Shown here in pieces: positions 14,717 through 62,200 of a stretch of DNA of 64,000 bases (position 1 is the stretch's first letter; each line of letters starts with the position of its first letter). This DNA comes from Vairimorpha necatrix. Lineage: Eukaryota. Location: positions 930,001-994,000 of the forward strand of contig CP142726.1 of the NCBI GenBank assembly GCA_036630325.1. The letters are read 5' to 3'. Both the position numbers and the translations under genes were made by a program. The notes beneath the pieces are model-generated. The model did not search any database. It was not told the DNA's origin and saw only the letters and a list, made by a program, of their open reading frames with translations.

Positions 14717-15133
14717 ATATTATGTATAAGGTAAATGAAAACATCCCAGTAAGTCCTAAAGATTTTTTTTGTAATATATTGTCTTAGATACTTTTAATTT
14801 ACAACATTATATATAAAATTATATTATATTTTACGCTTTAATATCCCGTAACTTTTATAATAAAATTTTTTTTTTCAAAAATGAAAACAAAAAAATGGTT
14901 ATAAGGTATTATAACACCTTCATGATAATTCATCGGGTTGAGTGTTTAACATAAAAAATATAATTCTAAAAATCATGTATTTGATCTAATCTATGCAGTA
15001 AGACATAATTAACCTCATACATGGTGTTGGAACAAAACATGGGTTTATTTTTATAAAATTATTTAAAAGATCAGATGTCAAATATATCAACTCGATTATA
15101 TATTTGACATTGACATTGACATATATTCCTACA

Positions 15134-18652: not shown

Positions 18653-18673
18653 GGGTTTATTTTTATAAAATTA

Positions 18674-19716: not shown

Positions 19717-19718
19717 TT

Positions 19719-22700
19719 TGTTAACCATTTATTTATTGAGGGTTCTAAACCCTACATCCCCCCTCCAGACAGGTAGTCTCTCCATCTTCTAAACAACTCT
19801 TCCTTATCTCTTTCAAATCATAATGCCTCTTTTTAACAATTTTACCATCCAGTAGTCTCACAATATATGAATCATTTTCACTTATAGCTACGATCCTTCC
19901 GCGACCCGTGAATCTTCCCTTGTCTGTTTTCGCACGTGTACCTAAATTTTCTCTCCTAGCGATTCTTACCTCTTGGCCTACTGTAAATGTCTCTCTGTGT
20001 CTTCTCTTGAACCGACCAGCATATTTTCCATTTTCATCATTTTCAATTATAACTTCAGCAGTTTGATCTCTCCACGCTTCCATCGGCGTACATTTTATTG
20101 CTGTATGTAGTGTATTATTATATCCTTTGATTGCTCTTTCTATCTTTTCAGAAATATTCCCATCATTTTGCTTTATCAATGTCTCTCTTATAGTTCTGAT
20201 GCATCTCTCGATTCTACCATTACTCCTATGAGCTTCTAAGCCCACTTTCCTATGTTTAATATCATTAATACTACACCATTCTTTAAATCTATTACTTACA
20301 AACTCTTTTCCGTTGTCTGTCACATATTCCTCTGGAAATCCATCTTCTCTTATCCACTTTTGTAATACCTCTATAACTTCACTACTCTCTTTACATCTCA
20401 AATTCGAACCCCACAACCTTCTAGTAAAGTAATCAATACCCAGTAACACATACCTATTCTCTCCACCTATGTCCATTAAATCCAACGCCACTTTCTCCAA
20501 TTTCTTTCTAGTTACTACGAAATCACATCCTCCTGTGTTTTTCCTATTGTTAATCCCACATATTTCACAATTCTTAATTACCTTATTAATATGATCTTTC
20601 ATACCAGGCCAATACCATCTTTGTTTAATGTTATAATAAGTGCCTTTGACACCTCTATGGTTTAACTCCTCATGTACTCTTGTTATTTCATGCTCTCTAC
20701 TATCTAGGCTCAATATCTCTTTCACCTCACCTGTGGAAAATTCCCAATACTGTTTACCGTCCTTTTCTTTAATATGTTTCTGCTTTTTTCCCAAAATTTG
20801 TTTTTCGATCACTTCTTTTCTCTTGTTGTCCTTTTCTTTTTGTTCATCCGAAACTTCTACCTGATCATACTGCCTACTTAACGCATCTGCATCTGTCATC
20901 AACTCCCCTTTCACATACTCTATTGTAAAGTCAAACTCTTGTATCTGTTCTACCCATCTGTTTATTCTGTTATTATTGAAGTATGGCTTATTTCTGATCT
21001 CTGCTAATGCTTTATGATCCGTCATCAAATGAAATTTCCTTCCTCTCAAATCACTTTCAAACTTCTTTATTCCAAAAAACACCGCCAACATCTCCTTCTC
21101 ACTTATCGTATATCTTCGCTCGGTAGGAGTCAACATTTTCGATGCCCATTGTATCGGAATCCACTCACCCTCTTTATTTTCTTGTAATAGAATTGCTCCG
21201 ATCCCCGTATCACACGCATCAGTTCTTACTCTAAATAGCTTTTTTCCGTCCGGAATCTTCAACTTTTTCATATCTCTCAAGCCTTGCTTCATATCCTCAA
21301 AAGCTCTTTCCATATCCTCCGTCCAATTCCACTTAACATCTTTCTTTAAAGCCTCAGTAAGCCTTACTGTTCTATACGCATAGTTGGGAATAAAGTCTCT
21401 AAACCAACCAGTTAGTCCTAAAAATCTTCTTAACTCTCTAACATTCTCAGGTTTTCTATATTCCAATGTCTCCTGCTTTTTAATCTCATTCGGTCCCATG
21501 ACCTCCCCATTAATTGTTACTCCCAGCAACATCACCTCATCTTTTTTGTATTGTATCTTTGTTTGGTTTATTCTCAACCCACACTCTTTAAACTTTTTAA
21601 TTACCCTCTCTAGTAACTCGTCATGCACTCTTACGTCTTTACCATGAATAACTATATCATCCATATATACTTCCACGCCTTTACCTCTGAATTCATCTAA
21701 AACTCTGTTCATTACTCTCTGCATTATATGAGGCGAATTCTTAAACCCCATAACCATACTATTCCATTCGTATACTCGACCATTCACTTCAAATGCTGTT
21801 TTGTGCTTATGGTGCTCCTCAATCTCAATATGATAAAACCCTTCTTTTAAGTCGATAACCGTAAATACTTTTGACCCCTGTGTGGCTCTCATAATATCCT
21901 TAATTAACGGTAGTGAGTACGGGTCCTTGTCAACCAAATCGTTTAACGCCATCAAATTGCTTACCAATCTTACGTCCCCATTTGGTTTTTCAAGTGCTCT
22001 TATTGGACTCCTCCACTCACTTTTGGAACGTCTTATAACCCCTCTATTTTCCAACTTATTCAAGTACTCCTCAAATTTCACCCTAAGGTAGTATGGCACA
22101 TTCTGCCCTCTTTTCACAACCTTTTCACCTTGCTTAGTATTTATTGGACACTTCTCTCCTGTGAGATATTTTATCTTTTCTTCTGATTCTTTAAAAACTT
22201 CCGGATACTTTTCAATTAAATTTTCTAACTTATTTACTGTTTTACATCTTTTCCCTTCATTGTTGATAATTGGTTCTTTCTGTAAAACTTGTTCCTTTTT
22301 AATTTTATATTTTTCCCTACCAGCTACACTTTCATGACATTCTCTAGCGTAATGCCCTTCTTTCTTACATATAAAACATTTTGTAGTTTCTCTGATTTCT
22401 CTTCTTTTCCTATACATCCTAAGATTTTCTTTTCTTTCTTCCCTAAACTCTTTCAACACTTTATCCATAATCTCTTTAATCATTTCTTGTCTTTCTTCTG
22501 ACTCTCTCTCAAATTCTGCTCCTTTTTGTAAGCCTTTATAAATTTCCTCCCAACTGCTCCTTCCGTCACAAAAATTTTCAAAAATATAATCCTGCAAGTT
22601 CGCAGATGCCAAATCCATAACATCTTTCCACTCAACTTTCAATATTAACTTTAGTCTCTTATCTATCCTAATTGCCTCTTTCTCTAATGTTCTAGCCTCT

Positions 22701-22784
22701 TGACTACGGGACTCTCTTGTTTCCCTGTTCATCCTTGTGTTCGCCATGTTAACCATTTATTTATTGAGGGTTCTAAACCCTACA
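19719..22784 (-). mobile_element. Inner Ty3/Gypsy element with identical 38-bp LTRs
   Basis: TGTTAACCATTTATTTATTGAGGGTTCTAAACCCTACA at 19719-19756 and 22747-22784; TSD TGATT; PPT GGAGGGGGGA; PBS-like TGGCGAAC. Confidence 0.95.
19745..22756 (-). CDS. Single-ORF Gag-RT-RNaseH-integrase polyprotein, no recognisable protease
   Basis: CFICKKEGHYAREC, DLKEGFYHI, YMDD, TDAC, HEELNH..CEIC, TDNGKEF, NGRIER; uninterrupted 1003 aa. Confidence 0.92.
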   Translation of the reverse strand: MVNMANTRMNRETRESRSQEARTLEKEAIRIDKRLKLILKVEWKDVMDLASANLQDYIFENFCDGRSSWEEIYKGLQKGAEFERESEERQEMIKEIMDKVLKEFREERKENLRMYRKRREIRETTKCFICKKEGHYARECHESVAGREKYKIKKEQVLQKEPIINNEGKRCKTVNKLENLIEKYPEVFKESEEKIKYLTGEKCPINTKQGEKVVKRGQNVPYYLRVKFEEYLNKLENRGVIRRSKSEWRSPIRALEKPNGDVRLVSNLMALNDLVDKDPYSLPLIKDIMRATQGSKVFTVIDLKEGFYHIEIEEHHKHKTAFEVNGRVYEWNSMVMGFKNSPHIMQRVMNRVLDEFRGKGVEVYMDDIVIHGKDVRVHDELLERVIKKFKECGLRINQTKIQYKKDEVMLLGVTINGEVMGPNEIKKQETLEYRKPENVRELRRFLGLTGWFRDFIPNYAYRTVRLTEALKKDVKWNWTEDMERAFEDMKQGLRDMKKLKIPDGKKLFRVRTDACDTGIGAILLQENKEGEWIPIQWASKMLTPTERRYTISEKEMLAVFFGIKKFESDLRGRKFHLMTDHKALAEIRNKPYFNNNRINRWVEQIQEFDFTIEYVKGELMTDADALSRQYDQVEVSDEQKEKDNKRKEVIEKQILGKKQKHIKEKDGKQYWEFSTGEVKEILSLDSREHEITRVHEELNHRGVKGTYYNIKQRWYWPGMKDHINKVIKNCEICGINNRKNTGGCDFVVTRKKLEKVALDLMDIGGENRYVLLGIDYFTRRLWGSNLRCKESSEVIEVLQKWIREDGFPEEYVTDNGKEFVSNRFKEWCSINDIKHRKVGLEAHRSNGRIERCIRTIRETLIKQNDGNISEKIERAIKGYNNTLHTAIKCTPMEAWRDQTAEVIIENDENGKYAGRFKRRHRETFTVGQEVRIARRENLGTRAKTDKGRFTGRGRIVAISENDSYIVRLLDGKIVKKRHYDLKEIRKSCLEDGETTCLEGGCRV

Positions 22785-23054
22785 TGATTTAAAAGATCAG
22801 ATGTCAAATATATCAACTCGATTATATATTTGACATTGACATCGACATTGACATATATTCCTACACATGGATAAATATATGGTATAGTCTAATATCTTTA
22901 TTAACACTAAAAAGTTTTATAAATGTCTATTAAAAATAAGATATCAATACTAGCAAGAAATATCTTAGAATACAATTGACGCATGAAATCAACATACAGA
23001 TAATTTTAGACTTTCTTAATATAGTTAAAATTCTTTAAATTTTTTTTTACACCC

Positions 23055-25881: not shown

Positions 25882-27171
25882 ATGAAAGAAGACTTTGTGA
25901 TTAATGTTGATGTATTGACCAAAACAAAACAATATAAAAAAGGGGATATCATAATTGAAATGACTAAACAAGAACGAGATGATAAAAATAAATATTTACA
26001 AGAGCATTCAAGTGTAGCGAATGTTAGTAAATATGCATCAGAACAAAATACGAGAGATATTAGTTTTAAGAATAACCTTAATAATGAAGAAATTAGAAGG
26101 AATGTAGAATTGGATTTAAATGTGCCTAATGTGGAAAATATTAGTGGAAGTAGAGAAGGAAAGACGATTTTAAATAAAACTCCTGAGTTTTTTAATCGTG
26201 GTCAATCACAAGAGCCACAAAATTACGAAAATGAATGTAATCCTATAAATAATAATTATAATCATAATTCATATGAGAATAAAAATATTTCATATGAAAA
26301 TAATCATAATTCATATGAAAATAATCATAATTCATACGAAAATAATCATAATTCATATAATTACGACAATAATCTTTCTTATGACAATTCGCCATTTGAT
26401 AATGAAGTTAGATTTAGTAGAAATAAATCTTTACACAATGCAAATATAAAACAAGGAATATCTCCTGGATTTTTTTATCAAGGCGACTTATACAATCATT
26501 TCTCTGGTGAACCAGAACACGAAGGCTATTATAATTTCCAGTCTCAAGACATAAAATCACAGCCAAATAATTTATTTGCTCAAACATTTGGACATTTTAA
26601 TAAAAAAAGATCTTTCAGCGAAGCAGACTTGAATAAATCAGTTAGAAATAGTCCATTTGTAAACTTCAGGCGTACTCCGCAATATCCAGAAGAATATTAT
26701 AAATCTAATACAGATGATTATTATAAAACAAGTAGAATTTCTGATAATTGTATAGATCCCAGAATGTTTTATAAAAATATATCAGGAGGACATATAAAAA
26801 ATAAAGAGAATCATTCTAAACCAGCTTTTTCATATGCGCAAATTATTACTAGAGCATTAAATGGCAGTAAAGATGGGAAATTGACATTAGGAGAGATTTA
26901 TAGATGGATTGAAGATAATTTCGAATATTATAAATACGCAAATCCAGTATGGAAAAATTCTATTAGACACAATTTGTCACTTAGTAAATGTTTTAAGAAA
27001 GTTCCTAGGGAACCGGGGACGAGAGGCAAAGGAGGAAAGTGGCAAATTGACCAGGAATTTATAGCACAAGAAGAACAAAGGAAGAAGAGAAAGAGCTTTG
27101 ATTCAGAGAATTTGATGAATTATCATTCTTATGATTTAAACCCAGAAGATCCGAGATTTTATCAGCTGTAA
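25882..27171 (+). CDS. Forkhead-box transcription factor
   Basis: [46 protein letters not shown]; internal NNHNSYE repeats at ~26255-26360. Confidence 0.95.
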
Positions 27172-39904: not shown

Positions 39905-42900
39905 ATGGATCTCAAATATGGTAAAGAATATAGTTGGGACATAATTACTAAATTCTTTGAACAGAAAGGCCTTGTAGGTCAACAAATTGATTCTTTTGAT
40001 CAATTTGTCAAGACTAAAATGCAAGAAGTAATTGACGAATCTCCCACGATCACCGTTCAAACTACTCTCTCTGCTGGTAATGAGTCAAGGAGAAAAATAA
40101 CTCTAAAATTTGGCCAAATTTATGTCTCTAAGCCTCCTTCTTATACAGAGGCAGATGGTACGACAATTACGCTTACGCCAAATGAGGCCAGACTCAGAGA
40201 TATAAATTATTTATCGCAGTTGTACATAGACGTCACTAAAGAGACTGAAAGTGAAAGCGGCATGGTCGATCAGCATAAATATTCAAGAATACCTTTCGGA
40301 AGTCTACCAATTATGGTCAAGTCTTCATATTGTTCGACATACAAATTGACAGACGAAGAGTTGATTAAAATTGGGGAATGTGAATATGACGTAGGAGGAT
40401 ATTTTATCATTAATGGATCTGAGAAAGTTATTATTGCTCAAGAGAGAATGGCGACTAATACGATTTATGTTTTTAAGAAATCTCAACCCGCGTCATATTC
40501 TCATTATGCAGAAATAAGGTCAGTACCAGAAAAGGGCGCCAAAAATCCAAGTGCAGTTTCTTTGAAATTATGTAAAAATCCAAATGTCATTAGAGTTTCA
40601 ATTCCGTACTCTAAACAAGAAATTCCTCTTTTTATAATTTACAGAGCTCTTGGTTTTCTTAGTGACAAGGAAATTACAGACCACATCGTCACTTCTAATG
40701 ATGAAGAAATGTTTGATATTTTAAAAGATAGCATTTTAGAATCTACTGTAGTACAAGACCAAAATGTAGCTTTGGATTATATTGGGAAGAGATCTGCTCC
40801 TGTTGGATCTTCTAGAGAAAAAAGAATAAATTTTGCCAGAGATTTGCTGGCCAAGGAATTATTGCCTCATATCGGGACACAAGAATTTAATGAGACAAAA
40901 AAGGCGTATTTCTTAGGCTACATGGTCCAGAAGCTTCTTATGGTAGCATTAGGAAGAAAGAAGGAAGATGATAGAGATCATTATGGGAAAAAGAGAATGG
41001 ACTTGGCTGGTCCTTTACTGGCTTCTTTGTTCAGATCTTTGTATAAGAAATTGTGTTCTGAGACTGCCAAGCACATGCAGAAATGTCTAGAAGGAGGCAG
41101 AGATTTCAATATTGCCCTAGGATTAAAAGCGAGTACAATAGCTCAAGGCTTCAGATATGCCATAGCAACTGGTAATTGGGGAGATCAAGCTCAGGCCATG
41201 CAGTCCAAGGCGGGAGTGGCCCAAGTTCTGAATAGATACAATTTTGTCTCTACGTTGAGTCATCTAAGGAGAGTCAACACACCAATAGAAAAAGAGGGCA
41301 AATTGGCCAAGCCCCGTCAGTTACACAATACGCATTGGGGGATGATTTGTCCCGCCGAGACCCCAGAGGGCCAAGCCTGTGGGCTTGTGAAGAATCTTTC
41401 TCTGATGGCTTACATTTCCGTGGGCTCGTCTTCTGAGCCAATTATTGAATTTCTAGAAGAATGTGGCCTAGAGAGTCTTGAAGAGCTTTCTCATTTTCAG
41501 TTACAAAATTCTACTAAAATTTTTGTAAATGGTGTCTGGGTTGGAATTCACGAAGATCCAGAATATTTGATAAATTCCTTGAGATTATTAAGGAGATCTT
41601 TAGAAATTGATAAAGAAGTGAGTATTGTGAGAGACATAAGAGAAAGAGAAATTAGAATTCAGTCTGATTCAGGGCGACCATGTCGCCCTTTATTTGTAGT
41701 AAAGAATAATAAGTTGTGCATAGATGAAGCGTATTCTAATAAAGAAGAAATTAAGAGATGCACTTGGAATGAATTCATAGAAAATGGACTTATTGAGTTT
41801 TTAGATGTAGAAGAAGAAGAAGTTTCAATGATAGCCATGTCTCCAGATCAACTTAATGAAAACAGATTTAATACCAAAGATTTAAGATATAATAATAATA
41901 TCCGCAAGGATCGAAGTAAAGACGTTGATTTCGATAATAATAGTACTAGTTTGAATTACACACATTGTGAAATCCATCCTGCTACTATTTTGGGGATTTG
42001 TGCCTCTGTTATTCCTTTCCCTGATCATAATCAGAGTCCTCGTAATACTTACCAGAGTGCTATGGTCAAACAAGCCATGGGAGTCTTTGCTACTAATTTC
42101 ATGCTTAGAATGGACACGCTGAGTAATATTCTCTATTATCCTCAGAAACCACTGGTCACTACTAAAAGTATGGAATATATGAAATTCAAAGAACTTCCTC
42201 CTGGTCAGAATGCCATAGTGGCTATAGCTTCGTATACGGGGTACAATCAAGAAGACAGTATAATAATGAATCAAAGCGCCATAGACAGAGGCCTCTTTAG
42301 GAGCTTCTTCTATAGAACTTATACTGATCAAGAAAATACAACCCGACCAGGAGCCCACGAGGAATTCTGTAAACCAAACAGGAGTGAAGTTCTTAGGATG
42401 AGAAATCTGAATTATTCCAAATTAGACGAGGATGGGATTATTCCCATAGGAGTCAGAGTGACTGGAGATGATGTGTTAATAGGAAAAGTAAGTCCAATTC
42501 TAGACCCAGAAAGAAGTACTAAGGCGAACCCAGTGTACTTGAAAAAAGACAGTAGTACAAGTATGAGGAGGACTGAGAATGGATTTGTAGACAGTGTAAT
42601 AGTCACAAATAAGGACGGGTATAAATTCGCGAAAGTGAAAGTGAGGACTAGTCGAATTCCACAAATGGGCGACAAGTTTGCGTCTCGTCATGCCCAGAAG
42701 GGGACCATGGGAATAAGTTTGAGACAGGAAGACATGCCTTTTACATCTGAAGGAATAGTCCCGGATATCATTATTAATCCTCATGCTATACCAAGTAGAA
42801 TGACTATAGGCCACTTAATAGAGTGTCTGTTGGGGAAGACATGTGCTTTGACTGGGGAAGAAGGAGACGCCACCCCTTTCAATGGAGTGACAGTGGACAG

Positions 42901-43390
42901 CATAAGCCAGAAACTGAAAGAGTTTAATTATCAACAAAGGGGATTCGAAGTCATGTACAATGGAATGACAGGGCATAAACTCAGGGCTCAAATCTTTATA
43001 GGCCCGACTTATTACCAAAGGCTTAAGCACATGGTCGAGGACAAAATCCACGCCCGGGCGAAGGGGCCGCTTCAAATTCTGACTCGTCAGCCTGTAGAAG
43101 GCCGATCGAGGGACGGAGGCCTGAGATTCGGGGAAATGGAGCGTGACTGCATAATTTCCCATGGTGCTTCTGCGTTTCTTAAAGAGAGACTGATGGATGT
43201 CAGTGATCCGTACAAATGTTCAGTGTGCGATGAATGTGGACTTATAGCTATTGATACTAAGAGATATAAAGAGTGTAAAGGATGTCATAATAGGACTAAT
43301 ATAAAAATGGTAGAAATACCTTATGCGTTTAAATTATTAATACAAGAATTAATGGCCATGAATATAGCACCCAGAATAAGAGCCGAATAA
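39905..43390 (+). CDS. RPB2: RNA polymerase II second-largest subunit
   Basis: GYFIINGSEKV, DDRDHYGKKR, RQLHNTHWG, GYNQEDS, GDKFASRHAQKG, GLRFGEMERD. Confidence 0.99.
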   Translation: MDLKYGKEYSWDIITKFFEQKGLVGQQIDSFDQFVKTKMQEVIDESPTITVQTTLSAGNESRRKITLKFGQIYVSKPPSYTEADGTTITLTPNEARLRDINYLSQLYIDVTKETESESGMVDQHKYSRIPFGSLPIMVKSSYCSTYKLTDEELIKIGECEYDVGGYFIINGSEKVIIAQERMATNTIYVFKKSQPASYSHYAEIRSVPEKGAKNPSAVSLKLCKNPNVIRVSIPYSKQEIPLFIIYRALGFLSDKEITDHIVTSNDEEMFDILKDSILESTVVQDQNVALDYIGKRSAPVGSSREKRINFARDLLAKELLPHIGTQEFNETKKAYFLGYMVQKLLMVALGRKKEDDRDHYGKKRMDLAGPLLASLFRSLYKKLCSETAKHMQKCLEGGRDFNIALGLKASTIAQGFRYAIATGNWGDQAQAMQSKAGVAQVLNRYNFVSTLSHLRRVNTPIEKEGKLAKPRQLHNTHWGMICPAETPEGQACGLVKNLSLMAYISVGSSSEPIIEFLEECGLESLEELSHFQLQNSTKIFVNGVWVGIHEDPEYLINSLRLLRRSLEIDKEVSIVRDIREREIRIQSDSGRPCRPLFVVKNNKLCIDEAYSNKEEIKRCTWNEFIENGLIEFLDVEEEEVSMIAMSPDQLNENRFNTKDLRYNNNIRKDRSKDVDFDNNSTSLNYTHCEIHPATILGICASVIPFPDHNQSPRNTYQSAMVKQAMGVFATNFMLRMDTLSNILYYPQKPLVTTKSMEYMKFKELPPGQNAIVAIASYTGYNQEDSIIMNQSAIDRGLFRSFFYRTYTDQENTTRPGAHEEFCKPNRSEVLRMRNLNYSKLDEDGIIPIGVRVTGDDVLIGKVSPILDPERSTKANPVYLKKDSSTSMRRTENGFVDSVIVTNKDGYKFAKVKVRTSRIPQMGDKFASRHAQKGTMGISLRQEDMPFTSEGIVPDIIINPHAIPSRMTIGHLIECLLGKTCALTGEEGDATPFNGVTVDSISQKLKEFNYQQRGFEVMYNGMTGHKLRAQIFIGPTYYQRLKHMVEDKIHARAKGPLQILTRQPVEGRSRDGGLRFGEMERDCIISHGASAFLKERLMDVSDPYKCSVCDECGLIAIDTKRYKECKGCHNRTNIKMVEIPYAFKLLIQELMAMNIAPRIRAE

Positions 43391-49244: not shown

Positions 49245-51514
49245 ATGGGTAAAAAAAAATAATTATTTATATTTTTTTTAAATTAAATTTTCCGTTTAAA
49301 AACGTAAATAGATTATGTCCAATGATATGTATCTCCTTTAATCTTCATAAGTTTAGTATTGAAAAATAAGAATATTAAAAGGAGAAATTTTTATTTTAAA
49401 TAAAAAACGTATATATGATTAATTTACGCAATTTGTAAATGATTGTAACTAAAACTTAAAAATTTTATAAGCTCAATCCATAACACTTTTTTTGATTTTT
49501 AGTCTTCAACGTTTCTAAAGATTTGAAAATAGGCTTAAAAAGATATAAAAACGTTTTTGATGATATTTTGAAACTTAGTTAAAAATAACATAAAAATATT
49601 ATTTAAACAACCTATATGTACGCTATTATAATAGTCAAATTGAAGCATTAAATTATAACAAAATAAGAATAATAGAAGTTGTTTTAAAACTTTAATGTCT
49701 TAAAAGAATAACACTTATAAGAAAATTCTTTTTATAATAAAGTAAAAGTAGATGATAATAATAAAATCAAATTGTACAAATTACGGAAGGGCTTATATGT
49801 ATAAATTTTATTTTTCCATGTTTTATGCGTGGAATAAAAAAAAATAACAAAAAAATAGGACAATATGGCTTATTTAAAACATGGCCATTGTTTGTATGAA
49901 AAAATAATAGTACCGAAATGGGTTAATTGAAACATGAATGCTTTAAATTTTTGATATTTATTGATCAATCAGTCATTGCCATCAAAAACGTTTTGAAACG
50001 TTTGACAGGCAATGTATAATTTCGAAGAAATATAATATTGCTCAAAAATGTATTCGTATCATTTATATAAGTTTTGAGTCATATTTTATACTTTTACTTT
50101 TATTAAAAAAATTTGGAATTTTTTAAAAAGATGCAGAGTTTTCTGTTATGCTCATTTAGTTATTAAATTATATTAATTTATTCGCAACATGTAAAGTAAC
50201 AACATCGGGAAAACGACAAAACAGAAACTAAAATATTTGAGCGCGTTTCGAATAACAATATGCTGCAAATATTTAATGTCTGCCCATTTTAATTGTAATC
50301 AGATTATATCTAGCTATAAATGCTTAAACAATTTATTTAAAATTTTTAGATATTGTGACTTTTAGTTTGACAATTTGCCTTCTAAGTCATTTATTTACGT
50401 TCAAATTTAAGGACAAAAATTTTACCCATATTTTAGTATTTTCTGGCCGAAGCCGTGTTGTTGTAGGGGATTCTAACACTTTTAAGGATCTTAAATATAA
50501 TAGCTTTTTGTGTATATTTTTTTTTGTTACTACAAAGTGACATTTTTTTTTATCATAACTGAAAATAGCCCCTTGTCCTTTATTAAATATATATATAACT
50601 ACTTTCTTGAGTGGCCTTTATGCGTAGAATATACCCATTTAATATATTTGATTCTTAGATCATTTTATTCTATATAAGATTTTTTTAAAAAATCCTGAAA
50701 TTTTTTATAACTGTGTAAAAAAATTATTTTTATCTACAATGAAAATATACTTTAATACTAAAATGTAGTTTTAACAAATATCACTCCAAATTTTACGTAT
50801 TTATTCTTATTATAGTATGGAATCTAATAAAAATAAATTTTTCTGTATACGATCATCATAAGCAACTAATAAAATTAAATTTTGATCTTTTTAATCATCA
50901 TCATATATATAAAAGAATTTTATTTAATTTTTTACCCCTAAAACTCAAAAAAAGAGAAAATTTAAAATGGTAAAATTTTTGTTTTAAAACAAAATTAAAT
51001 GCTTTCATTGTATTTTATAGACAATTTTAGACCAGATACATTATTTATATTTTAATTATAAATCATTTTTGAAATTATTAGAAATATGATTTTCTCCTTT
51101 TTAATTTCTTCCTTTTAGAAAAAGAAAACAAAAACAATATGAAACAAAATGTATAAAAAATTGGTTACTAATGTGTGAAATTAACTCAGTTGAATTTATA
51201 TTTGTTTCTGAATTAACTTTACCACTGCAATGTTGGTTCAATAATATACTTAACTTCTAAAAAATACATTGTTCCTTTTTAATTCTTCCTTTCAGAAATG
51301 TAAAATCAAAAATCAAAACAAGAAACAAACATTAAAAAGATGATTTACAAACATTAGAAATTTATCAACTGACTTACAAACTCAATTAAATAATATTTAG
51401 ACTAATATCAATGCTATTTATAAAAAATCATTTTCTCATTTTTGTTTTCTTCTTTCCCAAAATGGAATTTTAATTTTAAAAACTATAAATACTTTTTTTT
51501 TCTTTACCCCCATT

Positions 51515-54500
51515 ATGTTTACGAAAAATCAAACAAATTGCGATTTTAGTGAACAACCAAAAGCAACTATCACTATCTCTCAGGAGATATGTAGTAATAC
51601 TGAAAATGACAATGTTATTTTCTATGGGGCCAATGCCTCTGTACATAACACAAAAAATAAAAAAACAAATGTCGGTGAAACAAAAAAAAGGAATTTTATA
51701 TTCAGTTTCTCTGGCGAAAACAAAACAATTCTTAATCCAACAAACAACACAGAAAAAACAGCTAGATTAGCAGACAACACAACAATAGAAACCTTGACAG
51801 AAAAACTAGATGTAGCTTGCAGAATCATAAGCAGAAACCATGCTGAACATTATTGTGGAGATTTGAAAGAAGAATGTGGCTTTTGTGGTGCATTACATTT
51901 TGCTGGAGAAGCAAGCAGCAATGGATTATACAAAAGCTGCTGTCATTTTGGGAAAGTCAAATTACAAAGAACAAGAGACTTTCCAGATGACATTAAGAAT
52001 TTATATATAGGAAAAAATAAAGATGCAAAAAACTTCAGAGACAATATTAGGTCCTACAATGCTGCTCTTTCTTTTGCTTCTCTTGGTGCTCAAATAGAAA
52101 CTGTATCCAATGGACCATATGTATTTAAAATACATGGTCAAGTGTATCATAACACTTATAATGTAAATAATATGGACTCTAATGCACCAAAGAAGTATGC
52201 TCAATTATATGTAGTAGATAGTGATATGGCAAATGTTCAAAGAATGATGAATCCATCTAATAGAAATTGTGATATATATATCATGAGCAAATTAGATGGA
52301 TTTATAAGATCTGCTAATCCATATTCCAATGCGTATAAAAATATGTCTGAAATAGTAAAGGAGCAAAAGGAAATGGGGAAAGAAGTTAAAGACATTTCTA
52401 TGGTCTTTAATAAGAATTTAGAAAGAGATCAGAGAAGATATAACGCTCCCTCTACAAGTGAAATCGCAATGATTTTCACTGATCCAAATGGAGAACCACC
52501 ATTTGAGAGGGACATTAAAGTATATAGCAAGGGTCTTAGTTCTGATAATTTACATTTGGATGTTTTAAGTCCCCATCTAGATCCCATGACATATACTTTG
52601 TTCTATCCATATGGGGAAGCTGGGTGGAATGCAAATTTAAGGATTGAGTCTTATCATGGGGAATCACAGAAGATATCTTTACTACAATATAAAGTAGCAC
52701 AAATATCTATAAGAAAAGATAAGTTCAATCCTTTACTCTATGGAGGGAAGTTGTTTCAACAATGGATTGTAGATTCATATCTACAAGTAGAAGCAAACAA
52801 CTTAAACTTCATAAAGTTAAATCAGAAGACGTTGAGAGTAGATCTTTACAAAGGCTTAGTAGATTATGTAAATAATGGAATAGAAAGTAATGCTAAGCCT
52901 GTAATTTTACCATCAAGTTTCCAAGGATCTCCAAGAAATATGAGAGAGAGATACCATGATGCAATGTCAATTGTAAGAAATTTCGGAAAGCCCGATCTTT
53001 TCATTACTATGACTTGCAATCCAAATTGGAAGGAGATAAAGGAGAATCTATTTGAGGGACAAACTGCAGTTGATAGGCCTGATTTGGTAGCAAAGGTCTT
53101 CAACTTAAAATTAAAAAGCATGATGGAGGAGATTTTGTCAGGAAGAGTATTTGGGGAAGTTGAGGCTCATGTCTATTCTATTGAGTTTCAGAAACGTGGA
53201 CTTCCTCATGCTCACATATTGATAATGTTAAAGGATAAGATTCGGGATGAAGAAAGAATAGATAAGTATGTGAGTGCAGAAATACCATCACCCATGGACA
53301 ATGAGATGTTACACAACTGTGTAACAAAACATATGATTCATGGACCATGTGGACTAAGTAACTTGACAAGTCCATGCATGGAAAATGGTGTCTGCACGAA
53401 AGAATATCCCAAAGAATATAACTTTGAAACAAAGATAAATAATGACGGATATCCTGAATACCGAAGAATAAGAGGGACCGAGTACAATGTAAGGGGAAAC
53501 ATTGTTACTAATGCTAACGTGGTCCCCTATAATGCTTATTTGCTTGAAAAATACAACTGTCATATCAATGTAGAAGTTTGTACTTCTATCAAGTCAGTAA
53601 AGTATATTTTCAAGTATATTTACAAGGGATTTGATTGTGCAGAAATGAGAATAACCGACAACAATGAAATTGATCATTTTGTGAATTCCAGATATGTTTC
53701 AGCACCAGAGGCTACCTGGAGATTAATGGAATACAAGATGCATGGGAGATCTCATAAGATCCATAGACTTCCTGTGCATCTTCCACAAGAACACTTGATC
53801 ACTTTCGAAGAAGGGAAAGAAGAGGAAGCTGTTAGATTATCTGATCTTAGACAGACTCCTCTTTTAGCCTACTTCAAGTTGAATGAAGTTGATGAAGAGG
53901 CAAATCAATTTGCATATAGTGAGATACCCTATCACTATACATATAAAAGGGGAGAATGGATAAGGAGAAAGAATAAGTACAGCAAGATAATTACTAGACT
54001 TTATTCTGTATCTCCTACAGAGAAGGAAAGATTTAGCCTCAGAGTCCTATTGATCAATGTAAAGGGGGCTAGATCATATGATGATTTGAGAACTGTAAAT
54101 GGTATAGTTTATAGTTCTTTTGCAGAAGCGGTTGAAGAAAGAGGACTTCTTCAAGATGACAAAGAATGGGAAAGGGCTTTGGATGAGGCAGTAGCAACCG
54201 AATCCCCAGCAATAATAAGAGCATTGTTTGGATATATTTGTGCTTTTAATAAGCCAAAAAATACCAAAAAACTCTTTGATAAGTATCTTGGAGATATGTC
54301 TGAAGATCTAGATCAGAATAGTAGAGACGAAGTTATTAGTAGATTAAAAGATATAGTTAATGCTCATGGATGGAGTCTAAATGCTCTGGGTTTAGATGAG
54401 CCGATTAACTATATCGTGAAGGCAAAAACTATCTCTGATAATGGAAAAGATCTAGATCAGATGATCTCCTCTTTAAATGCAAAGCAGAGGGATGCTTTTG

Positions 54501-55819
54501 ATAAAATAACAGATAATATTGATAAAAAGGGCAATTTATTCTTTTTAGATGGACCAGCAGGATCGGGGAAGACATATCTATATAATGTCCTGACCGAGTA
54601 TTTAAACAAGAATAAAAAATCTTCAATACAGATGGCAACCACAGGTATTGCTGCAGATTTATTAAAGGATGGAAGAACAATGCATAGTTGTATGAAACTT
54701 CCTGTTCCTTTGACAGAGACCAGCGTATCTAGATTAAAAAGAAATACTCCCGAAGCAGAGAAAATAATAAAGGCCTCTTTATTGCTAATAGATGAAGTTT
54801 CAATGATGTCAAAACATGCATTGAACGCAATAGATGAGGTGCTTAAAAGACTCTGTAACAATGATGATATCTTCGGAGGGAAAACTCTATTGTTGGGTGG
54901 TGATTTTAGACAGACATCAACCATTGTAATGAAGGGTACTCCAAATGATATCATCGAGAACTCATTAATTAGTTCAAGGCTTTGGGTACATGTCTGTGTA
55001 CTGAAGCTTGAAACGAATATGAGATCTTACAATCAATTGGAGTTTAATAAGTGGTTGTTAGATATAGGTGAGGGGCGTACTAGAGATAGTAAAGGATGTG
55101 TGGAGATACCCAAAGAATATCTTGAAGAAGGGGACATAGTCGATAGCATTTTTGGAACAACCAAAATTGAAGCAGGTGATGATTCTTTGTTTGATAAGAT
55201 TATCTTAACAAGCAAAAATGAACATGCAAATGAATTGAATGCCAAAGTGTTAAACCTACTTAATGGATCTTCTAGGGTATATGTGAGTTCTGATGCTATA
55301 GAATCAGAGGATATCGAAGAACAACTGAGATTTCCTCTTGAGTTCTTGAACATGCAACAGCCATCAGGACTTCCTCCACATAAGTTAGTACTGAAGATAG
55401 GGGCAATAGTGATGTTGTTACGCAATATTGATCCTAAGAATGGATTATTAAATGGGACCAGATTGAAGATAAAAAGTCTCAGAGATAATTACATCTTAGG
55501 TGAAATAATAACAGGAAGGGGAAGGGGCACCCTTGCTGTTATACCAAAGATAGACATGATGCCAAGTGACACTCTTCTTCCGTTTGTACTTAAAAGAAGA
55601 CAGTTTCCTGTGGTATTGTCATATGCTATGACAATACATAAAGCACAGGGACAGTCTTTTGACAAAGTGGGAGTGTATTTGCCTGAGGATGTATTTTCTC
55701 ATGGTCAATTATACGTAGCTTTGTCAAGAGTGAAGAAGAGTGAAAACTTGAGAGTCAAGTTGGGGGGAAACGGGGGCAATGTCAAAAATGTAGTTCTACG
55801 TGAACTAATTGGCCCATAA
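51515..55819 (+). CDS. Helitron Rep/helicase (HUH endonuclease plus PIF1 helicase), intact
   Basis: FITMTCNP, EFQKRGLPHAH, YIFKYIYK; GPAGSGKT, DEVSM, GGDFRQ, TIHKAQGQS, HGQLYVALSR; 1434 aa uninterrupted. Confidence 0.97.
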   Translation: MFTKNQTNCDFSEQPKATITISQEICSNTENDNVIFYGANASVHNTKNKKTNVGETKKRNFIFSFSGENKTILNPTNNTEKTARLADNTTIETLTEKLDVACRIISRNHAEHYCGDLKEECGFCGALHFAGEASSNGLYKSCCHFGKVKLQRTRDFPDDIKNLYIGKNKDAKNFRDNIRSYNAALSFASLGAQIETVSNGPYVFKIHGQVYHNTYNVNNMDSNAPKKYAQLYVVDSDMANVQRMMNPSNRNCDIYIMSKLDGFIRSANPYSNAYKNMSEIVKEQKEMGKEVKDISMVFNKNLERDQRRYNAPSTSEIAMIFTDPNGEPPFERDIKVYSKGLSSDNLHLDVLSPHLDPMTYTLFYPYGEAGWNANLRIESYHGESQKISLLQYKVAQISIRKDKFNPLLYGGKLFQQWIVDSYLQVEANNLNFIKLNQKTLRVDLYKGLVDYVNNGIESNAKPVILPSSFQGSPRNMRERYHDAMSIVRNFGKPDLFITMTCNPNWKEIKENLFEGQTAVDRPDLVAKVFNLKLKSMMEEILSGRVFGEVEAHVYSIEFQKRGLPHAHILIMLKDKIRDEERIDKYVSAEIPSPMDNEMLHNCVTKHMIHGPCGLSNLTSPCMENGVCTKEYPKEYNFETKINNDGYPEYRRIRGTEYNVRGNIVTNANVVPYNAYLLEKYNCHINVEVCTSIKSVKYIFKYIYKGFDCAEMRITDNNEIDHFVNSRYVSAPEATWRLMEYKMHGRSHKIHRLPVHLPQEHLITFEEGKEEEAVRLSDLRQTPLLAYFKLNEVDEEANQFAYSEIPYHYTYKRGEWIRRKNKYSKIITRLYSVSPTEKERFSLRVLLINVKGARSYDDLRTVNGIVYSSFAEAVEERGLLQDDKEWERALDEAVATESPAIIRALFGYICAFNKPKNTKKLFDKYLGDMSEDLDQNSRDEVISRLKDIVNAHGWSLNALGLDEPINYIVKAKTISDNGKDLDQMISSLNAKQRDAFDKITDNIDKKGNLFFLDGPAGSGKTYLYNVLTEYLNKNKKSSIQMATTGIAADLLKDGRTMHSCMKLPVPLTETSVSRLKRNTPEAEKIIKASLLLIDEVSMMSKHALNAIDEVLKRLCNNDDIFGGKTLLLGGDFRQTSTIVMKGTPNDIIENSLISSRLWVHVCVLKLETNMRSYNQLEFNKWLLDIGEGRTRDSKGCVEIPKEYLEEGDIVDSIFGTTKIEAGDDSLFDKIILTSKNEHANELNAKVLNLLNGSSRVYVSSDAIESEDIEEQLRFPLEFLNMQQPSGLPPHKLVLKIGAIVMLLRNIDPKNGLLNGTRLKIKSLRDNYILGEIITGRGRGTLAVIPKIDMMPSDTLLPFVLKRRQFPVVLSYAMTIHKAQGQSFDKVGVYLPEDVFSHGQLYVALSRVKKSENLRVKLGGNGGNVKNVVLRELIGP

Positions 55820-55827
55820 GAGCCAAG

Positions 55828-55937
55828 AGATGGAGAAATGCGCCGTGAGCGTACAAGAACTATGCCATTTTTTCCACAAAAACAAGATAAAAGATGGTAA
55901 AATGCGCCGTGAGCGTACAAAAACTATGCCATTTTTT
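55828..55937 (+). repeat. Two 46-bp direct repeats in the Helitron 3' region
   Basis: AGATGG..AAATGCGCCGTGAGCGTACAA.AACTATGCCATTTTTT at 55828 and 55892. Confidence 0.9.
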
Positions 55938-56025
55938 TAAAGAATAAATATAATGTGATAAAATTAAAACATGTACCAATGCAAACACAAACAACCCGTT
56001 CTAAGAACGGGTCTGTATACACTAG

Positions 56026-58093
56026 TCATATATATAAAAGAATTTTATTTAATTTTTTACCCCTCTTTTTTGTGGTTTTGAATTTCTAAACTATTTATTT
56101 TGATCTTATTAAGTTATTATAATATCAAATATAGATTTATTGCTTTACTTTGACTATTCTAAGTGTGTAAGTTATCAGTTAATACATTTTTATTTTGATT
56201 ATTATTTTTGTTAAACTCAGTTCCAAAATATCGTCAGAATCGTTTTTTAGAATTTATTTAACCCTTCTAGAAAAATTTTAAAAATAATTGCCAAAAGAAG
56301 AAATTGAATATAAGTGTCATAAATTGAGCTTAAAAGTTCCCAAAATTATCTCATTATAACTATTAAATGTTTTTAGATCAAGTTTACTCCTTATATGTTA
56401 CCAAAAAGTATTTTTCAAATTCATGTTTTCTCCTTTTTAAATTCAATTATCCAAAATGGAAACTTTACAAAATTTAAGGATCAAAGACATATTATCAAAC
56501 TAAACATTTAGATCCCGTTTTCAAAACGAAAGCATAAGCTAGTCATATATATAAAAGAATTTTATTTAATTTTTTACCCCTCTTTTTTATGATTTTGTAA
56601 AATCTAAACTTCTTATTACAGCTTATAATATTATTGGAATATCAGATATAAACTCAATGAAGGATTTTGACTATCATATGTGCGTGTACTGTATGTTAAT
56701 ACATTTCGATTTTAATTCTTTGTTTTGTAAAACTCAGTTCCAAAATATCGTCAGAATCGTTTTTTAGAATTTATTTAACCCTTCTACAAAAGTTTTAAAA
56801 ACAATTGACAAAAGAAGAAATTGAATGTAAGTGTCAAAAGCTGAACTTTAAGAGTTTTGAACATATCTCATTAAGATTCATAAGTGTTTTTAACTTCATT
56901 TTATTCTTTAATTGTTCAAAAAAAGTGTTTTTTAAAATATAAATCTCCTTTTCTTTATCATACCAAAAATGGAAACTCAAAAAATAAAGTAGAAATAAAT
57001 GCCATGAACAATATATCAATCCCGTTTTCAAAACGGGAAAGCATACGCTAGTCATATATATAAAAGAATTTTATTTAATTTTTTACCCCTATTTTTTGTG
57101 ATTTTGTAAAATCTAAACTTCTTATTTTATGCTTATTGTGTTATTAAAATAGTGTTTTCGAATTTAATGCTTTCGTTTATTTATCGTAAGTGCGTACACT
57201 ATATATTAATGCATTTTTATTTTAATTCTTTGTTTTGTAAAACTCAGTTCCAAAATATCGTCAGAATCGTTTTTTAGAATTTATTTAACCCTTCCACGAA
57301 AAATTGTAAAAACATCTGACAAATAAAGATTTTGAATATAAGTGTCAAAAAATGAGCTTAGAAGTTCAAAATTATCTCATTGAGATTATTAAATGTTTTA
57401 CAACAACATTACTCCTTATATGTCACTAAAAAGTATTTTTAAAAATCATGTCCAATCTGCCAAATTCAATTATCCTCAAATGGAAACTCACTAAAATTGA
57501 ACGAGAAGATACACATTATAAAACAAACACATTTATCCCGTTTTCAAAACGGGAAAGCATACGCTAGTCATATATATAAAAGAATTTTATTTAATTTTTT
57601 ACCCCTCTTTTTTTGAATTTGAAATTTCTAACTAAACGGTACATTTTGAGCCTTTTACGTTAATATAATATCATACATAGAATTAATGTTTCAATTTGAT
57701 AATTATAGATGCGTATACTATATGTTAATACTTTTCGTTTTTAATAAAGTTTTTTGTAAAACTCAGTTCCAAAATATCGTCAGAATCGTTTTTTAGAATT
57801 TATTTGACCCTTCTACAAAAATTTCAAAAAACATTTAAATGTAAAAATTTTGAATAAAAGTATCATAGTTTAGCTTTAGAACTTCACAAACTTATATCAA
57901 TTAGATTAATAAGTTTTTTTAACCATATTTTACACTTTCGTGTTACTTAAAAAGAGTTTTTTTAAATCATACCATCATCTCCTTTCAAATTCCTTCTTCC
58001 CAAAATGGTAACTTTCTAAAATTGAATGAGAAGATAGACATTATGAAACTAAAAATTTAAATCCCGTTTTCAAAACGGGAAAGCATACGCTAG
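56026..58093 (+). mobile_element. Array of four divergent mini-Helitrons: 56026-56542, 56543-57051, 57052-57567, 57568-58093
   Basis: Each unit runs from TCATATATATAAAAGAATTTTATTTAATTTTTTACCCCT to hairpin CCCGTTTTCAAAACGGG and CTAG (unit 1 hairpin partly damaged); every junction is CTAG|TC; the array is followed by T. Confidence 0.95.
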
Positions 58094-58212
58094 TCTCTTA
58101 CTAAAAGTATTTTGATTTTTAAAACTTAGGAAGTCGAGATTGTTTTATAGTTTTTAAATGATGCTTGATAGAAATAAATGCTCTTACTTCCCAGTATTTG
58201 ACTTATTTAATT

Positions 58213-59235
58213 GGCTAAAGTCAACTTTAACGGAAAAATTTCGATATAGGGTTTTTTGATTTTTTTGCCCCTTTTTTAAAAAAATGGAGGAGAGAAAATG
58301 TTGAGGAAGAAACAAAAATAACAAATAAAATATATAATTTAATAATGCGTGAAACCCCGGGGTAGAAGAGTTACTTTGTAGCATATACCCCGAATAATAA
58401 AGTTTAGTACTATGAACAGATCTGTTTCTATTTGGAATAGAATTTTTAAAAGAGCGCCAATTACCTTCTATGGTATTGGTATGAACTCCGGTTATTGGGT
58501 CTCTGAAGTGTAGAGAATGATTTACCACCAGATGTTGGTTAAATGTTAAGTCCAAATTACGGTAGGCTCTCCACATATTGCTATAAATTGTACTATTTCT
58601 GTCTACATACTTTAACAAAAGATTAGTTAGCGTTATTTTGTCTCTTTTCTCAATATATATAAATATAATTCGGCGTTGTATGGTACGTTCGACCAATCCA
58701 AAACACCAGAAACCTTTTACTGGTTGGCCTCTATTATATTTATTTTTACCAATCTTAGATTCATCAATTTCTACAATAGTATTATTACCACCTATAATTC
58801 CGATACTGGCCAGATATGTCTCATAAATATTAATTTCTTTTAACTTTTTTAGTATACTAGATATTGATTGCCGAGAACAACCTAGGATTTGACAGATAGG
58901 CTTACGAGAATATCCTAGAATCCACATATTAAGTATCTGCAATACTGTAATATGGTCTAGTCTAGAATGCTGAAAGAAAGTATCTTTCCATACAGAAACA
59001 TTAAATTTGCATTTAGTCCATTTACATCTTAGGATCATGCTTTTTTTTGTCCTTTATTTTCATTTCTGACCCACAAGATTCACATTTGCGTTTCGCTTTT
59101 TCTATTTTCAATTCATAGTATATATTTTCAAGTTCTTCTCTTGTTTGAATTCTCTCCTCCATTTTTTTATAAAAGTGGCAAAAAAATCAAAAAAAAACCC
59201 ATATCGAAATTTTTCCGTTAAAGCTGACATTAGCC
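58213..59235 (-). mobile_element. Merlin transposon with ~85-bp TIRs; transposase pseudogene
   Basis: TIR GGCTAAAGTCAACTTTAACGGAAAAATTTCGATAT... and inverse; ATG at 59162 is frameshifted relative to the main ORF at an A-run; the second catalytic Asp reads Asn (YSNMWRAY); no clean TSD. Confidence 0.88.
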
Positions 59236-62200
59236 ATATTTTTCATTGGATAATAATAAAATTGTATGAGCCCAAGCTTTTTAGTTTAAATTTACACTCC
59301 CAAATTTCTTTTTTTGCTCATCTTTTAAAAATAGCTTAGAATATAGGCAAAAATTGAAACACCTGAAAAAATCGAAGTTTCAAAAATGCACGTACTTTTT
59401 TATTACTCATATTACCTATCGTATATTTTAAATCTTTATGAAAACAATAATTTTAAACGACTTTTTCATACATATTGCAAATATTGTACAAAGTAAAATT
59501 TATTTAGTTTTTCATATTATAAAATTATTTCAGCTCATTAAACAAAGAAGATTCATTTTAACGTTTCTAGATTTTCTTATAAGTTGAAAAAATTTAATGT
59601 ATTTTTTTAGAACATATGTTATTGTGTAATATCTTTTGATTTTGATCTTAGACAGCATTTCAGAGTTTAAAATGAGTACTGTGTTTTGTACTTTCTCATC
59701 AACACATTATGCAGTTTTTTTTGCTGATCTAGTTGTTTTTTATATCGAAACCTATTATATTGTTCTGATAATGAGACTTAATGATTGATGCCTTTTGTTT
59801 TCTCACTTAAAATCATGATTATATTATTTGTGTAGCTTTGCTGCCATACACTCATGTAACCCGGCAATTTTAGTGCTATATGTATGAACGAAAAAACATT
59901 ATTTGGAAGTAGCCAAATTTAATTAATTAAAGCACAAATTTTTTATTATTTTCGTTAAAATGAACTATGTACATAATTATAATTGAATTTTAATATAATA
60001 AATGGAGAAATTATAAGAATTTATTTACATGTACATTCATGATTTAAAAATTTTAATTTTGCCTTAAAATCACGCAAGCAAAAGGAAAACCAAATATATA
60101 TAGAAAAGCTTTATTATTTTTATATATACTATTAAATACAATAAAATTTATAGATAATTATTAAAGCAACGGAAGATTCGTTGAAAAATTTAATTTTGAA
60201 TATATGTGAATTTAGGTCAAAATGATTGTTTAAAACATTATATGCAAAAAGATAAAATTAAATACATTATTTTGAATATTTCATTTTTATTTGGATTTTA
60301 GTATAAAATATTTATAATGTTTAATCGACTTATATTATACATCAATTATTTTAACAATAATTTTAAACTAATTTTATGAAAAATTACCAATATACATAAA
60401 CTCTTTTTATTGCATTTTTAATTTGTAAGACCAACAAACTCAACAATATATTTTGATTTAACGATTTAAATATGATCTTGCAGCAAACGTTTTAAATTCT
60501 TTTTGATAACGTGTTTAATATCTAAATATATTTTATACACAATATCCCCAAAATATTGTTAATATATGTTGTTTGCCTCGCAGTAATTAAATTTAAAAAA
60601 AATTCTAAGAATTTGCTGGCTTATATTTGGTTCGACTTTTTGAACAAGCCCAAGCTGTATATTTTTAGTTATATGGTGTTGCAATTTATAAAATGTGTTC
60701 CAAGTAAAACAATAAAAATTCGATAATACTTAATTTAATTTACAAACTTCAAATATATTAAAACCTAAGGAAAATGTAAAAAAATTTAGTTGAAAAATTG
60801 TGGAATATTTAAAGATAAAAAAAACCGAATATAAAACAAAAAGATGGTAAAATTTCAACTCGAATAGAAAACCCGTATAAGTGTGTGATAATAGCTGTAT
60901 TAAGTAAAAATCAGACAAAGCAATGACTAGAAAATTATACTTTTTAGAACCTTAACCTTAATTAGATCTTTTTTAAAAAATAAATACTATTAGTATCATT
61001 CAATGATATAACCAACAGGGTCGACTTCTATAGATGAGAATGAAAAACTAAGAAAATATGACCTCTTTGCGCATGAAAGCGGACTAATACAATAATCCCG
61101 CACAAGAGTAGTTCATTTATGTAAAACATGGGGATGGAGTGGCGAACAATATTACAGAAAGTACACCAGGGAGCTAAATCTAACATACCTTAGAACCAAG
61201 TATTTTGTGCTGAAGAATACTTTAGTATCCATCTCTTTGGAACGACGACGAGAATACAAAAGAGAAATAAGTGGCTAGAGCTGTAAGCGCCTTAACAAAA
61301 AGAACGAAAGTTAAAAAGGTTGTGTCGTTTATAGAAGCTAGAAATCTGGAGCTATAAAATATTAATGTAATCACAAAAACTATGCCTTTAACAATACAAA
61401 TCACAAGGAGAAACCATAACAAGCTGGATGTAATTTTCTAAACTAGATTTAACTTCTTCTCAATACTGATCTATACCTCAATTTTTATCTTGACTTAAGA
61501 ACATCCAAAAAACATTAGAAAACAATTATGATGTGACTGATGAAACCTGCATGTATCTTGTGGAAACCATTGTCAACAGCGCAACAAACAAATTACTTTA
61601 AAGACAAATATTACGGTACATCGTTAAAAACATATGGATACATCTTAAAATAATAAACATTATGAGCATATTGTTATAAATTTTTATTTTCGATAAACTC
61701 AACAATATTGATAGTTAAAGAAAATAAACTATGATTGAGAATTTACATGGCATTTTTTAAAATATATTTTAGACAGAACCTAAAAAAAAGACTAAAAATT
61801 CATATAGTTTTTTCAATTTATACCGTTGACTAATTATTTAAGATTTTTGAATCCTAAAAAACCATGTATATTATGAAATCTTTGCTGTACAATAACCCCA
61901 AATTAAAATTTTAAGAGCGTATATGAGTTAAACAAAATGAAAATATTGATATTTTAGATTTCAACTATAGATTTTCAGTTTTTTAATGAATTTAGAATGC
62001 ACAGTATAACATATTTGTCGTTGTTGTGCCTTTAACATTATATGAAGCTTACATTGTACTTTATATAGCTAAAAATGAAAATTTTAAAATTTGCTGACCA
62101 ACCCGTTCTAAATATTTTACAAATAAAAAACATTTATTTATCATCGGTTTATTATCTCAACTATCTTTTCGATCAATTTTTTTCTCATAATTTTAATAGC

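Follow-up and report, generated by a model that had tools for sequence, protein, structure and literature searches.

A stretch of 64,000 nucleotides from Vairimorpha necatrix (contig CP142726.1, positions 930,001 to 994,000 of the forward strand; the whole stretch is called the window below) contains a canonical Helraiser-like Helitron family, composed of one autonomous 5.1-kb copy, here termed H, and ~0.5-kb non-autonomous derivatives, here termed minis. The derivatives retain the 39-nt 5' end of the helper, an interior stretch distantly related to its 5' leader, and a 3' hairpin-plus-CTAG terminator that matches that of the helper. Four minis (U1-U4) follow H head to tail, and two further minis (V1 and V2) form a second train elsewhere in the window. 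The units are not clonal, and the trains probably arose as one member after another inserted at a terminus of a copy already in place, on one side or the other, together with later movement of sub-trains by read-through of a terminator.

Helitron target choice and the origin of head-to-tail arrays are still argued mainly from sequence data, and the candidate routes to an array are rolling-circle run-on and insertion beside a resident copy. Five complete elements in a row and a separate pair, all of them non-clonal, make the present locus an unusually clear natural example in favor of the second route.

Two head-to-tail trains

The sequence-only reading of this locus had described an intact Rep-Hel Helitron followed without spacer by four units of 509-526 bp, and all of these were found exactly where it had placed them. 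The second train (18674-19716, minus strand) is an addition to that description. The elements of the family, in window coordinates, are as follows.

50901-56025, plus strand: autonomous Helitron H, 5125 bp; TC at the 5' end, CTAG at the 3' end; host A at 50900
51515-55819, plus strand: Rep-Hel open reading frame (ORF) of H, 1434 amino acids, single and uninterrupted
50901-50939, plus strand: 5' terminal block of H, 39 nt, the same in H and all six minis
55995-56025, plus strand: 3' terminator of H, a 17-nt hairpin (55995-56011) and then 14 nt ending in CTAG
56026-56542, plus strand: mini U1, 517 bp; nhmmer E 1.2e-136; weakened hairpin
56543-57051, plus strand: mini U2, 509 bp
57052-57567, plus strand: mini U3, 516 bp
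57568-58093, plus strand: mini U4, 526 bp; host T at 58094
19716-19195, minus strand: mini V1, 522 bp, at the head of the second train and preceded by host A; nhmmer E 1.2e-151
19194-18674, minus strand: mini V2, 521 bp, with a CTAG/TC joint to V1; host T after it; nhmmer E 1.9e-145
49288-49767, minus strand: old mini copy, apparently solitary; ~61% identity over ~500 nt, E 4e-27 (BLAST); nhmmer match at 49465-49654, E 3.3e-09

All four internal junctions of the train behind H (50901-58093) read CTAG/TC with zero spacer, the slash marking the joint, and the A/T rule is obeyed only at the outer borders (A50900 and T58094), as had been reported. The outer flanks of the V1-V2 train are likewise A and T, and no target-site duplication is seen at either train. 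Exact matches to the 39-nt 5' end number seven in the window (H, U1-U4 and two on the minus strand), with none expected from shuffles, which bears out the claim that the ~39-bp 5' ends of the units are identical to that of the parent. TC opens and CTAG closes each of the seven intact elements, in agreement with the TC/CTRR ends and the lack of terminal inverted repeats that define Helitrons, and in each of the seven a hairpin is followed by 14 nt to the end, within the ~10-15 nt of the canonical Helitron arrangement.

Folded as DNA, the hairpins of U2, U3 and U4 reach -9.3 kcal/mol, and those of all minis except U1 range from -9.3 to -7.8 kcal/mol. The U1 hairpin is weaker, at only -4.6 kcal/mol, because two G are missing through a 2-nt deletion, and the end of U1 differs at one further base. 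The claim that each unit has its own hairpin and CTAG end thus holds for all four units behind H, with a weakened hairpin in U1, which is also the exception to the otherwise perfect ends of the train elements.

A profile built from the six minis finds, over the 64 kb, only the six minis themselves, the 5' 39 nt of H and the weak match at 49465-49654. Within the window, six of six intact minis stand in trains, and the 5' ends of five of the seven intact elements touch a CTAG end. The weak match lies in the old copy at 49288-49767, in which the ends and the core have decayed as well, as judged from the alignment. The ORF list contains no ORF of at least 80 amino acids within 56026-58093, and comparison of the units with the RNA families of Rfam yielded no more than two matches, both below the gathering threshold (27.9 bits, threshold 50; 20.3 bits, threshold 55.6). 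Tandem Repeats Finder overlooks the array, as the unit period exceeds its 500-nt limit.

Divergence among the minis

Pairwise identity among the six minis is 70.1-81.1% overall and is distributed over the alignment as follows, each value being the mean pairwise identity of the block.

Columns 1-46: 5' end block, 99.3%, 1 of 46 columns variable
Columns 47-188: first variable block, 70.3%, 84 of 142 columns variable
Columns 189-248: core, 96.3%, 6 of 60 columns variable
Columns 249-495: second variable block, 67.7%, 159 of 247 columns variable
Last 34 columns: 3' end block, 93.9%, 5 of 34 columns variable

Measured against 62.5% variable columns elsewhere, the binomial probabilities of the three conserved blocks are 2e-18 for the 5' end, 3e-17 for the core and 1e-08 for the 3' end. 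The units do differ visibly between conserved blocks, as had been noticed by eye, with 68-70% identity there. Selection for mobility, and not decay in place, has shaped the units, as is evident from the three conserved blocks. Neutral decay in place is excluded because near-invariant ends stand beside ~30% divergence, while the ends are gone from the one copy that is truly decayed.

In the first variable block the nearest relatives are found across trains. U2 and V1 share 88.4% identity and U4 and V2 share 78.9%, while nothing in their own array comes closer than 73% to U2 or 66% to U4. In a maximum-likelihood tree of this block the clade of U4 and V2 has a support of 99/100, and a single clade of U1-U4 is rejected (approximately unbiased test, p-AU 4.15e-05). 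V1 and U2, which are 88% identical in the first variable block, are 60% identical in the second, which hints at a patchwork. Units recombined at the core were considered as a candidate explanation; the distances are suggestive, but the tree tests fall short of establishing it (p 0.148 and 0.298).

The autonomous element and its Rep-Hel protein

By sequence criteria H is an intact autonomous Helitron, because it has a single uninterrupted Rep-Hel ORF whose product contains the corresponding Pfam domains and aligns with the Helraiser transposase, motifs included. Pfam assigns Helitron_like_N (E 4.8e-62), PIF1 (E 3.5e-55) and a Pif1 2B domain. Residues 110-1421 align with the solved bat Helraiser transposase (7lcc_A) at 1227.8 bits, and the alignment places the HUH stretch, the paired tyrosines and the Walker A motif of the two proteins opposite each other. 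The protein is strikingly close to a bat-derived one over ~1300 residues, although its host looks microsporidian-like. Horizontal spread of the Helraiser-type Helitron group is known, and the closeness of the H protein to Helraiser fits it.

The hairpin of H, folded as DNA, has an energy of -9.1 kcal/mol (z -5.4), and its upper stem and loop are unlike those of the minis' hairpins. Several repeats accompany the element. Between the stop codon and the 3' hairpin (55825-55937) lies a pair of 49-nt direct repeats that are 92% identical, stand 64 nt apart and are GC-rich relative to the surrounding region. The leader contains three spaced copies of a T-rich motif (51092-51475; starts at 51092, 51269 and 51433), the third of which has at its end a short motif; in all minis this motif is likewise conserved, near their 3' part. 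In the 5' flank of H there is a 36-nt direct repeat (50824-50901; 78% identical, 42 nt apart), the second copy of which ends at the insertion point.

Minis, helper and the mini-specific core

The minis look like old deletion derivatives of an H-like helper, because they share with H a homologous leader stretch, the base of the hairpin and its distance of 14 nt from the end. Local alignment of the interior of the minis with the H leader (~50956-51338) scores 58-62; for comparison, 200 AT-rich chunks used as the null had a mean of 34.9, a standard deviation of 6.2 and a maximum of 53. The core was located in the window six times, with at most one mismatch per copy.

56212-56259, plus strand: core of U1
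56729-56776, plus strand: core of U2
57239-57286, plus strand: core of U3
57758-57805, plus strand: core of U4
18960-19007 and 19483-19530, minus strand: cores of the second train

A candidate counterpart of the core in H was rejected, its scores of 14 and 16 lying below the null mean of 16.9. Because the core is conserved to the same degree as the ends, it may well be needed for the spread of the minis, and it is a testable candidate cis element.

Surroundings of the trains

The window is AT-rich, with 22-38% GC in 2-kb steps. A forkhead-domain protein (25882-27171) and a complete RPB2 (39905-43390) are each encoded by one intron-free ORF. Together with the Merlin/IS1595-type transposase ORFs and the Ty3/gypsy elements described below, these features are in keeping with a microsporidian of large genome.

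About 110 bp downstream of the train behind H lies a Merlin/IS1595-type DNA transposon (58184-59236) with ~87-nt inverted repeats (58212-58296 and 59150-59236, 91% identical) and, between them, a 284-amino-acid ORF matching DDE_Tnp_IS1595 (E 2.3e-14). Another Merlin/IS1595-type transposase ORF is found at 2869-3972. A decayed Helitron 5' end in the 3' flank of U4 was also considered and rejected (scores 7 and 8 against a null mean of 7.8; p ~0.65 and ~0.5).

The V1-V2 train has no adjoining Rep-Hel gene, and its neighbors are Ty3/gypsy-type pol and gag-pol ORFs. A short motif stands on each side of the pair, and both motifs are found again at borders of neighboring Ty3/gypsy-type ORFs (15025-22830, minus strand): the 39 nt at 19757-19719 equal those at 22785-22747, and the 37 nt at 18673-18637 equal those at 15061-15025. 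The other copies of both border motifs are preceded by one common stretch of ~44 nt. With the Helitrons taken out, only ~55 nt would lie between one pol stop and the next gag start, an odd layout for retroelements.

Copies and reads outside the window

Exact-pattern scans for further copies gave no match in metagenome contigs for the 5' end or the core, none in prokaryote genome contigs for the CTAG/TC junction pattern and none in viral contigs for the 5' end. The Rep-Hel protein gave pattern matches in genome and viral contigs, none of which was confirmed.

Two sequencing runs, X1 and X2, contain 0.33 and 0.26 of the sampled words, respectively, and no RNA run is listed as containing them. 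Their contigs over 50500-58600 are short, none of them spanning the region, and the bin 50500-50770 is uncovered. One X1 contig of 193 nt covers 58066-58257 with 0 differences, and X1 is possibly the source sample. Contigs of both runs change between units at equivalent positions, and such contigs may be chimeric de Bruijn artefacts. Summed contig word depth, which is not a copy number, is in the hundreds to ~36,000 for the minis versus 0-381 for the Rep-Hel ORF (X2), which suggests that the X1 and X2 samples hold many more mini-like than helper-like sequences.

Origin of the trains

The reading that we consider probable is that different members of the family inserted successively and separately, each exactly at the boundary of a resident copy. 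Two routes would lead to such a structure: insertion at the canonical A/T site that the host A forms with the first T of the resident, or insertion at a G/T site, be it the one at the resident's 3' end or one at an internal junction. Judging from the chemistry of Rep, the 5' boundary, the 3' boundary and the internal junctions of a resident would all be native cleavage sites, and hence natural targets. Rep has been reported to cleave the plus strand precisely at the end-to-end junction (Grabundzija, 2018; PMC5876387). Furthermore, whatever is bounded by one 5' end and a 3' end downstream of it could probably move as a block on terminator read-through, and the weak U1 terminator would help sub-trains to move. 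The sequence shows the anatomy, the non-clonality of the units and selection on the three blocks, while we infer the aiming at termini, the receiving side and the movement of blocks. Because the window offers 7573 A/T sites, the five exact CTAG/TC abutments are beyond chance, except if several of them were passed on jointly, in blocks.

The premise from which the sequence-only reading had set out, namely that independent A/T insertions cannot give G/T junctions, is wrong, because a host A followed by the first T of a resident is itself an A/T site, and insertion there yields A/TC...CTAG/TC.... Integration at an existing terminus, as it had proposed, could have taken place on the 3' side, and the data do not separate this from insertion on the 5' side.

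Several points weigh against serial insertion at termini. The preference for termini is drawn from seven intact elements in one 64-kb window, and some of the junctions may have been inherited in blocks. No empty or partly filled site, paralogous ones included, was found for either train, so that serial insertion is not observed as such. That array neighbors are not monophyletic, a check which the sequence-only reading had called for, was borne out in the first variable block, and in the second variable block monophyly of U1-U4 is not rejected (p-AU 0.162). There is no age gradient along the train: U1 is the most damaged unit in the conserved blocks, which fits insertion on neither side cleanly. 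Finally, Helraiser is reported to have inserted randomly in HeLa cells, with no local hopping, although HeLa cells are without resident copies of an active family (PMC4778049).

The main alternative is that the trains were made off the chromosome or elsewhere and inserted whole at ordinary A/T sites, so that the H-U1-U4 train would represent one insertion and the V1-V2 pair another. The mixed multimers could come from homologous recombination between double-stranded circles of unlike minis at the conserved blocks or from terminator read-through across neighbors. The canonical outer A and T of both trains and the lack of an adjoining helper at the V pair agree with this origin, as do reports that circles are active donors and that 3' ends can be bypassed (PMC4778049). 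The weak hairpin of U1 (-4.6 versus -9.3 kcal/mol) would favor read-through, and the patchwork hints, seen in the V1-U2 identities by block and in the unit switching of the X1 and X2 contigs, point in the same direction. However, the first joining of unlike units would merely be relocated and left unexplained, the V1-V2 pair matches no adjacent pair among the U units, the patchwork signal is not significant (in the second variable block the tree test leaves U2 with V1 standing, p 0.148), and the unit switches come from de Bruijn contigs that may be artefactual. Insertion of ready-made blocks is considered unlikely. The proposal of the sequence-only reading itself, in which unlike mini circles are captured in turn at the 3' terminus of the helper in the manner of integron cassettes, with the minis as satellites, is improbable. 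Rep natively cleaves CTAG/T ends and CTAG/TC junctions, so that a G/T target is chemically plausible (PMC5876387); capture at a 3' end is one of the two options of Du et al. (2008), and the one that the maize polymorphism fits most simply (PMC2267711); and the most damaged terminator is that of U1, the mini that such capture would make the oldest. Against these stand a V train without a helper, the failure of the argument that had excluded ordinary A/T insertion, the absence of an attachment site, a cassette ORF or a separate recombinase, an end structure identical to that expected from 5'-side insertion, and an age argument that rests on n = 1. The integron-like label is a poor fit, there being no dedicated recombinase or attachment site and no unit ORF of at least 80 amino acids, and hitch-hiking of the minis behind the helper is unnecessary because the second train has no adjoining Rep-Hel element. 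Nothing supports a dedicated, integron-like, helper-anchored system.

The two remaining explanations concern the array as a whole. A single rolling-circle run-on, followed by divergence of the copies in place, would give junctions free of host bases. However, near-perfect ends and core go together in these units with an overall identity of only 70-81%, a single clade of U1-U4 is rejected in the first variable block, where the nearest relatives lie in the other array, and the copy that has truly decayed lost its ends. An old concatemer of this kind is very unlikely and close to refuted, and the sequence-only reading was right to discount one run-on. That the assembly strung dispersed copies together deserves mention because ~80 nt are identical around every junction, such that short reads could thread the units in a wrong order, and because no X1 or X2 contig spans the whole stretch. 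Nevertheless, the units are distinct, unlike the products of collapse or expansion errors, two separate trains exist, and the 193-nt X1 contig, from what is possibly the source sample, reproduces the junction of U4 with its flank exactly. For the junctions in particular an artefact is unlikely because the 3' and 5' blocks share no sequence, so that reads containing CTAG/TC are required. An assembly error is accordingly given very little credence.

Serial insertion at resident termini can be extended to a bolder proposal, which we advance tentatively and regard as doubtful: Rep would prefer resident termini and junctions, trains of unlike minis would grow, shrink and reshuffle as part of the ordinary life cycle, any contiguous sub-train could leave as a mixed circle, and the core would serve as a cis site required by the minis for loading, resolution or recombination. 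If true, Helitron ends would be natural self-targets, providing a sequence-defined route from a transposon to a satellite-like array. If most minis genome-wide were found to sit in trains, this would be an argument that Helitron ends attract Helitrons, with a bearing on the birth of Helitron-derived tandem repeats and satellites.

Relation to known systems

A Helitron fraction is on record for Nosema bombycis (PMC3614468), and the non-autonomous Lep1 Helitrons of that species include Lep1-like elements of ~190-445 bp (PMC4038834). No report of trains of at least three unlike Helitrons, or of Helitron arrays in microsporidia, was found in a search that covered few subscription journals, and Han et al. 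(2013; PMC3789558) make no mention of tandem, head-to-tail, multimer or junction.

The family resembles Helraiser/Helibat1 (7LCC) in its Rep-Hel ORF, its TC and CTAG ends, a hairpin 14 nt from the end and its A/T flanks. It differs in residing in an AT-rich host with seemingly intron-free genes, in terminal sequences that are the family's own and in the 60-nt core of the minis, which is absent from the helper.

In integrons, cassette arrays grow by serial addition of small circular units at one boundary, and in this respect they offer an analogy. Unlike integrons, the present locus lacks a tyrosine-recombinase integrase, attI and attC sites, cassette ORFs and a fixed platform, and one of the two trains is helperless. 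The sole enzyme is the Helitron Rep-Hel protein, as assigned by Pfam, and there are no cassette genes.

Tandem Helitron arrays in a bat, in plants and at centromeres have been read as rolling-circle products (Pritham and Feschotte, 2007; Xiong et al., 2016; as cited in PMC5876387, PMC5148889 and PMC6591975). The present trains share with them the head-to-tail order and the precise end-to-end junctions. However, those arrays are described as copies of one element, as expected of a concatemer with near-identical units that are each other's closest relatives, whereas the units here, at 70-81% identity, do not have their nearest relatives among one another. End-bypass and composite Helitrons (PMC4778049; PMC4224331) are similar in that a 5' end can pair with a 3' end farther downstream, but in the cases reported there host DNA lies between the ends, while none lies between the elements here.

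The nearest precedents concern insertion beside a resident copy. Chellapan et al. (2016; PMC5148889) described three tandem Helitron copies in Metarhizium acridum and offered the same two insertion alternatives as an earlier maize study (Du et al., 2008; PMC2267711). In that study, published in BMC Genomics, two unlike maize Helitrons were found head to tail with a G/T junction, each of them present or absent among inbred lines, and it was concluded that they had inserted consecutively, either at a non-canonical GT at the 3' end of the resident or at the canonical AT that the host A makes with the 5' T of the resident. The maize pair and the present trains have in common the CTAG/TC joint without a host base and elements too unlike to be tandem repeats; five such joints between substantially differing elements are found here, as in the type of junction on which Du et al. 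(2008) based their argument. The maize case consists of two large gene-carrying elements, for which alone strain polymorphism data exist, whereas here five elements stand in a row, a helper with four minis, in addition to the separate pair, and the units belong to one family with three sharply conserved blocks. Because the phenomenon and both routes have been published (Du et al., 2008), the locus is not a new kind of system; head-to-tail pile-up of unlike Helitrons is already in print, and the trains described here are a new and unusually clean example of it.

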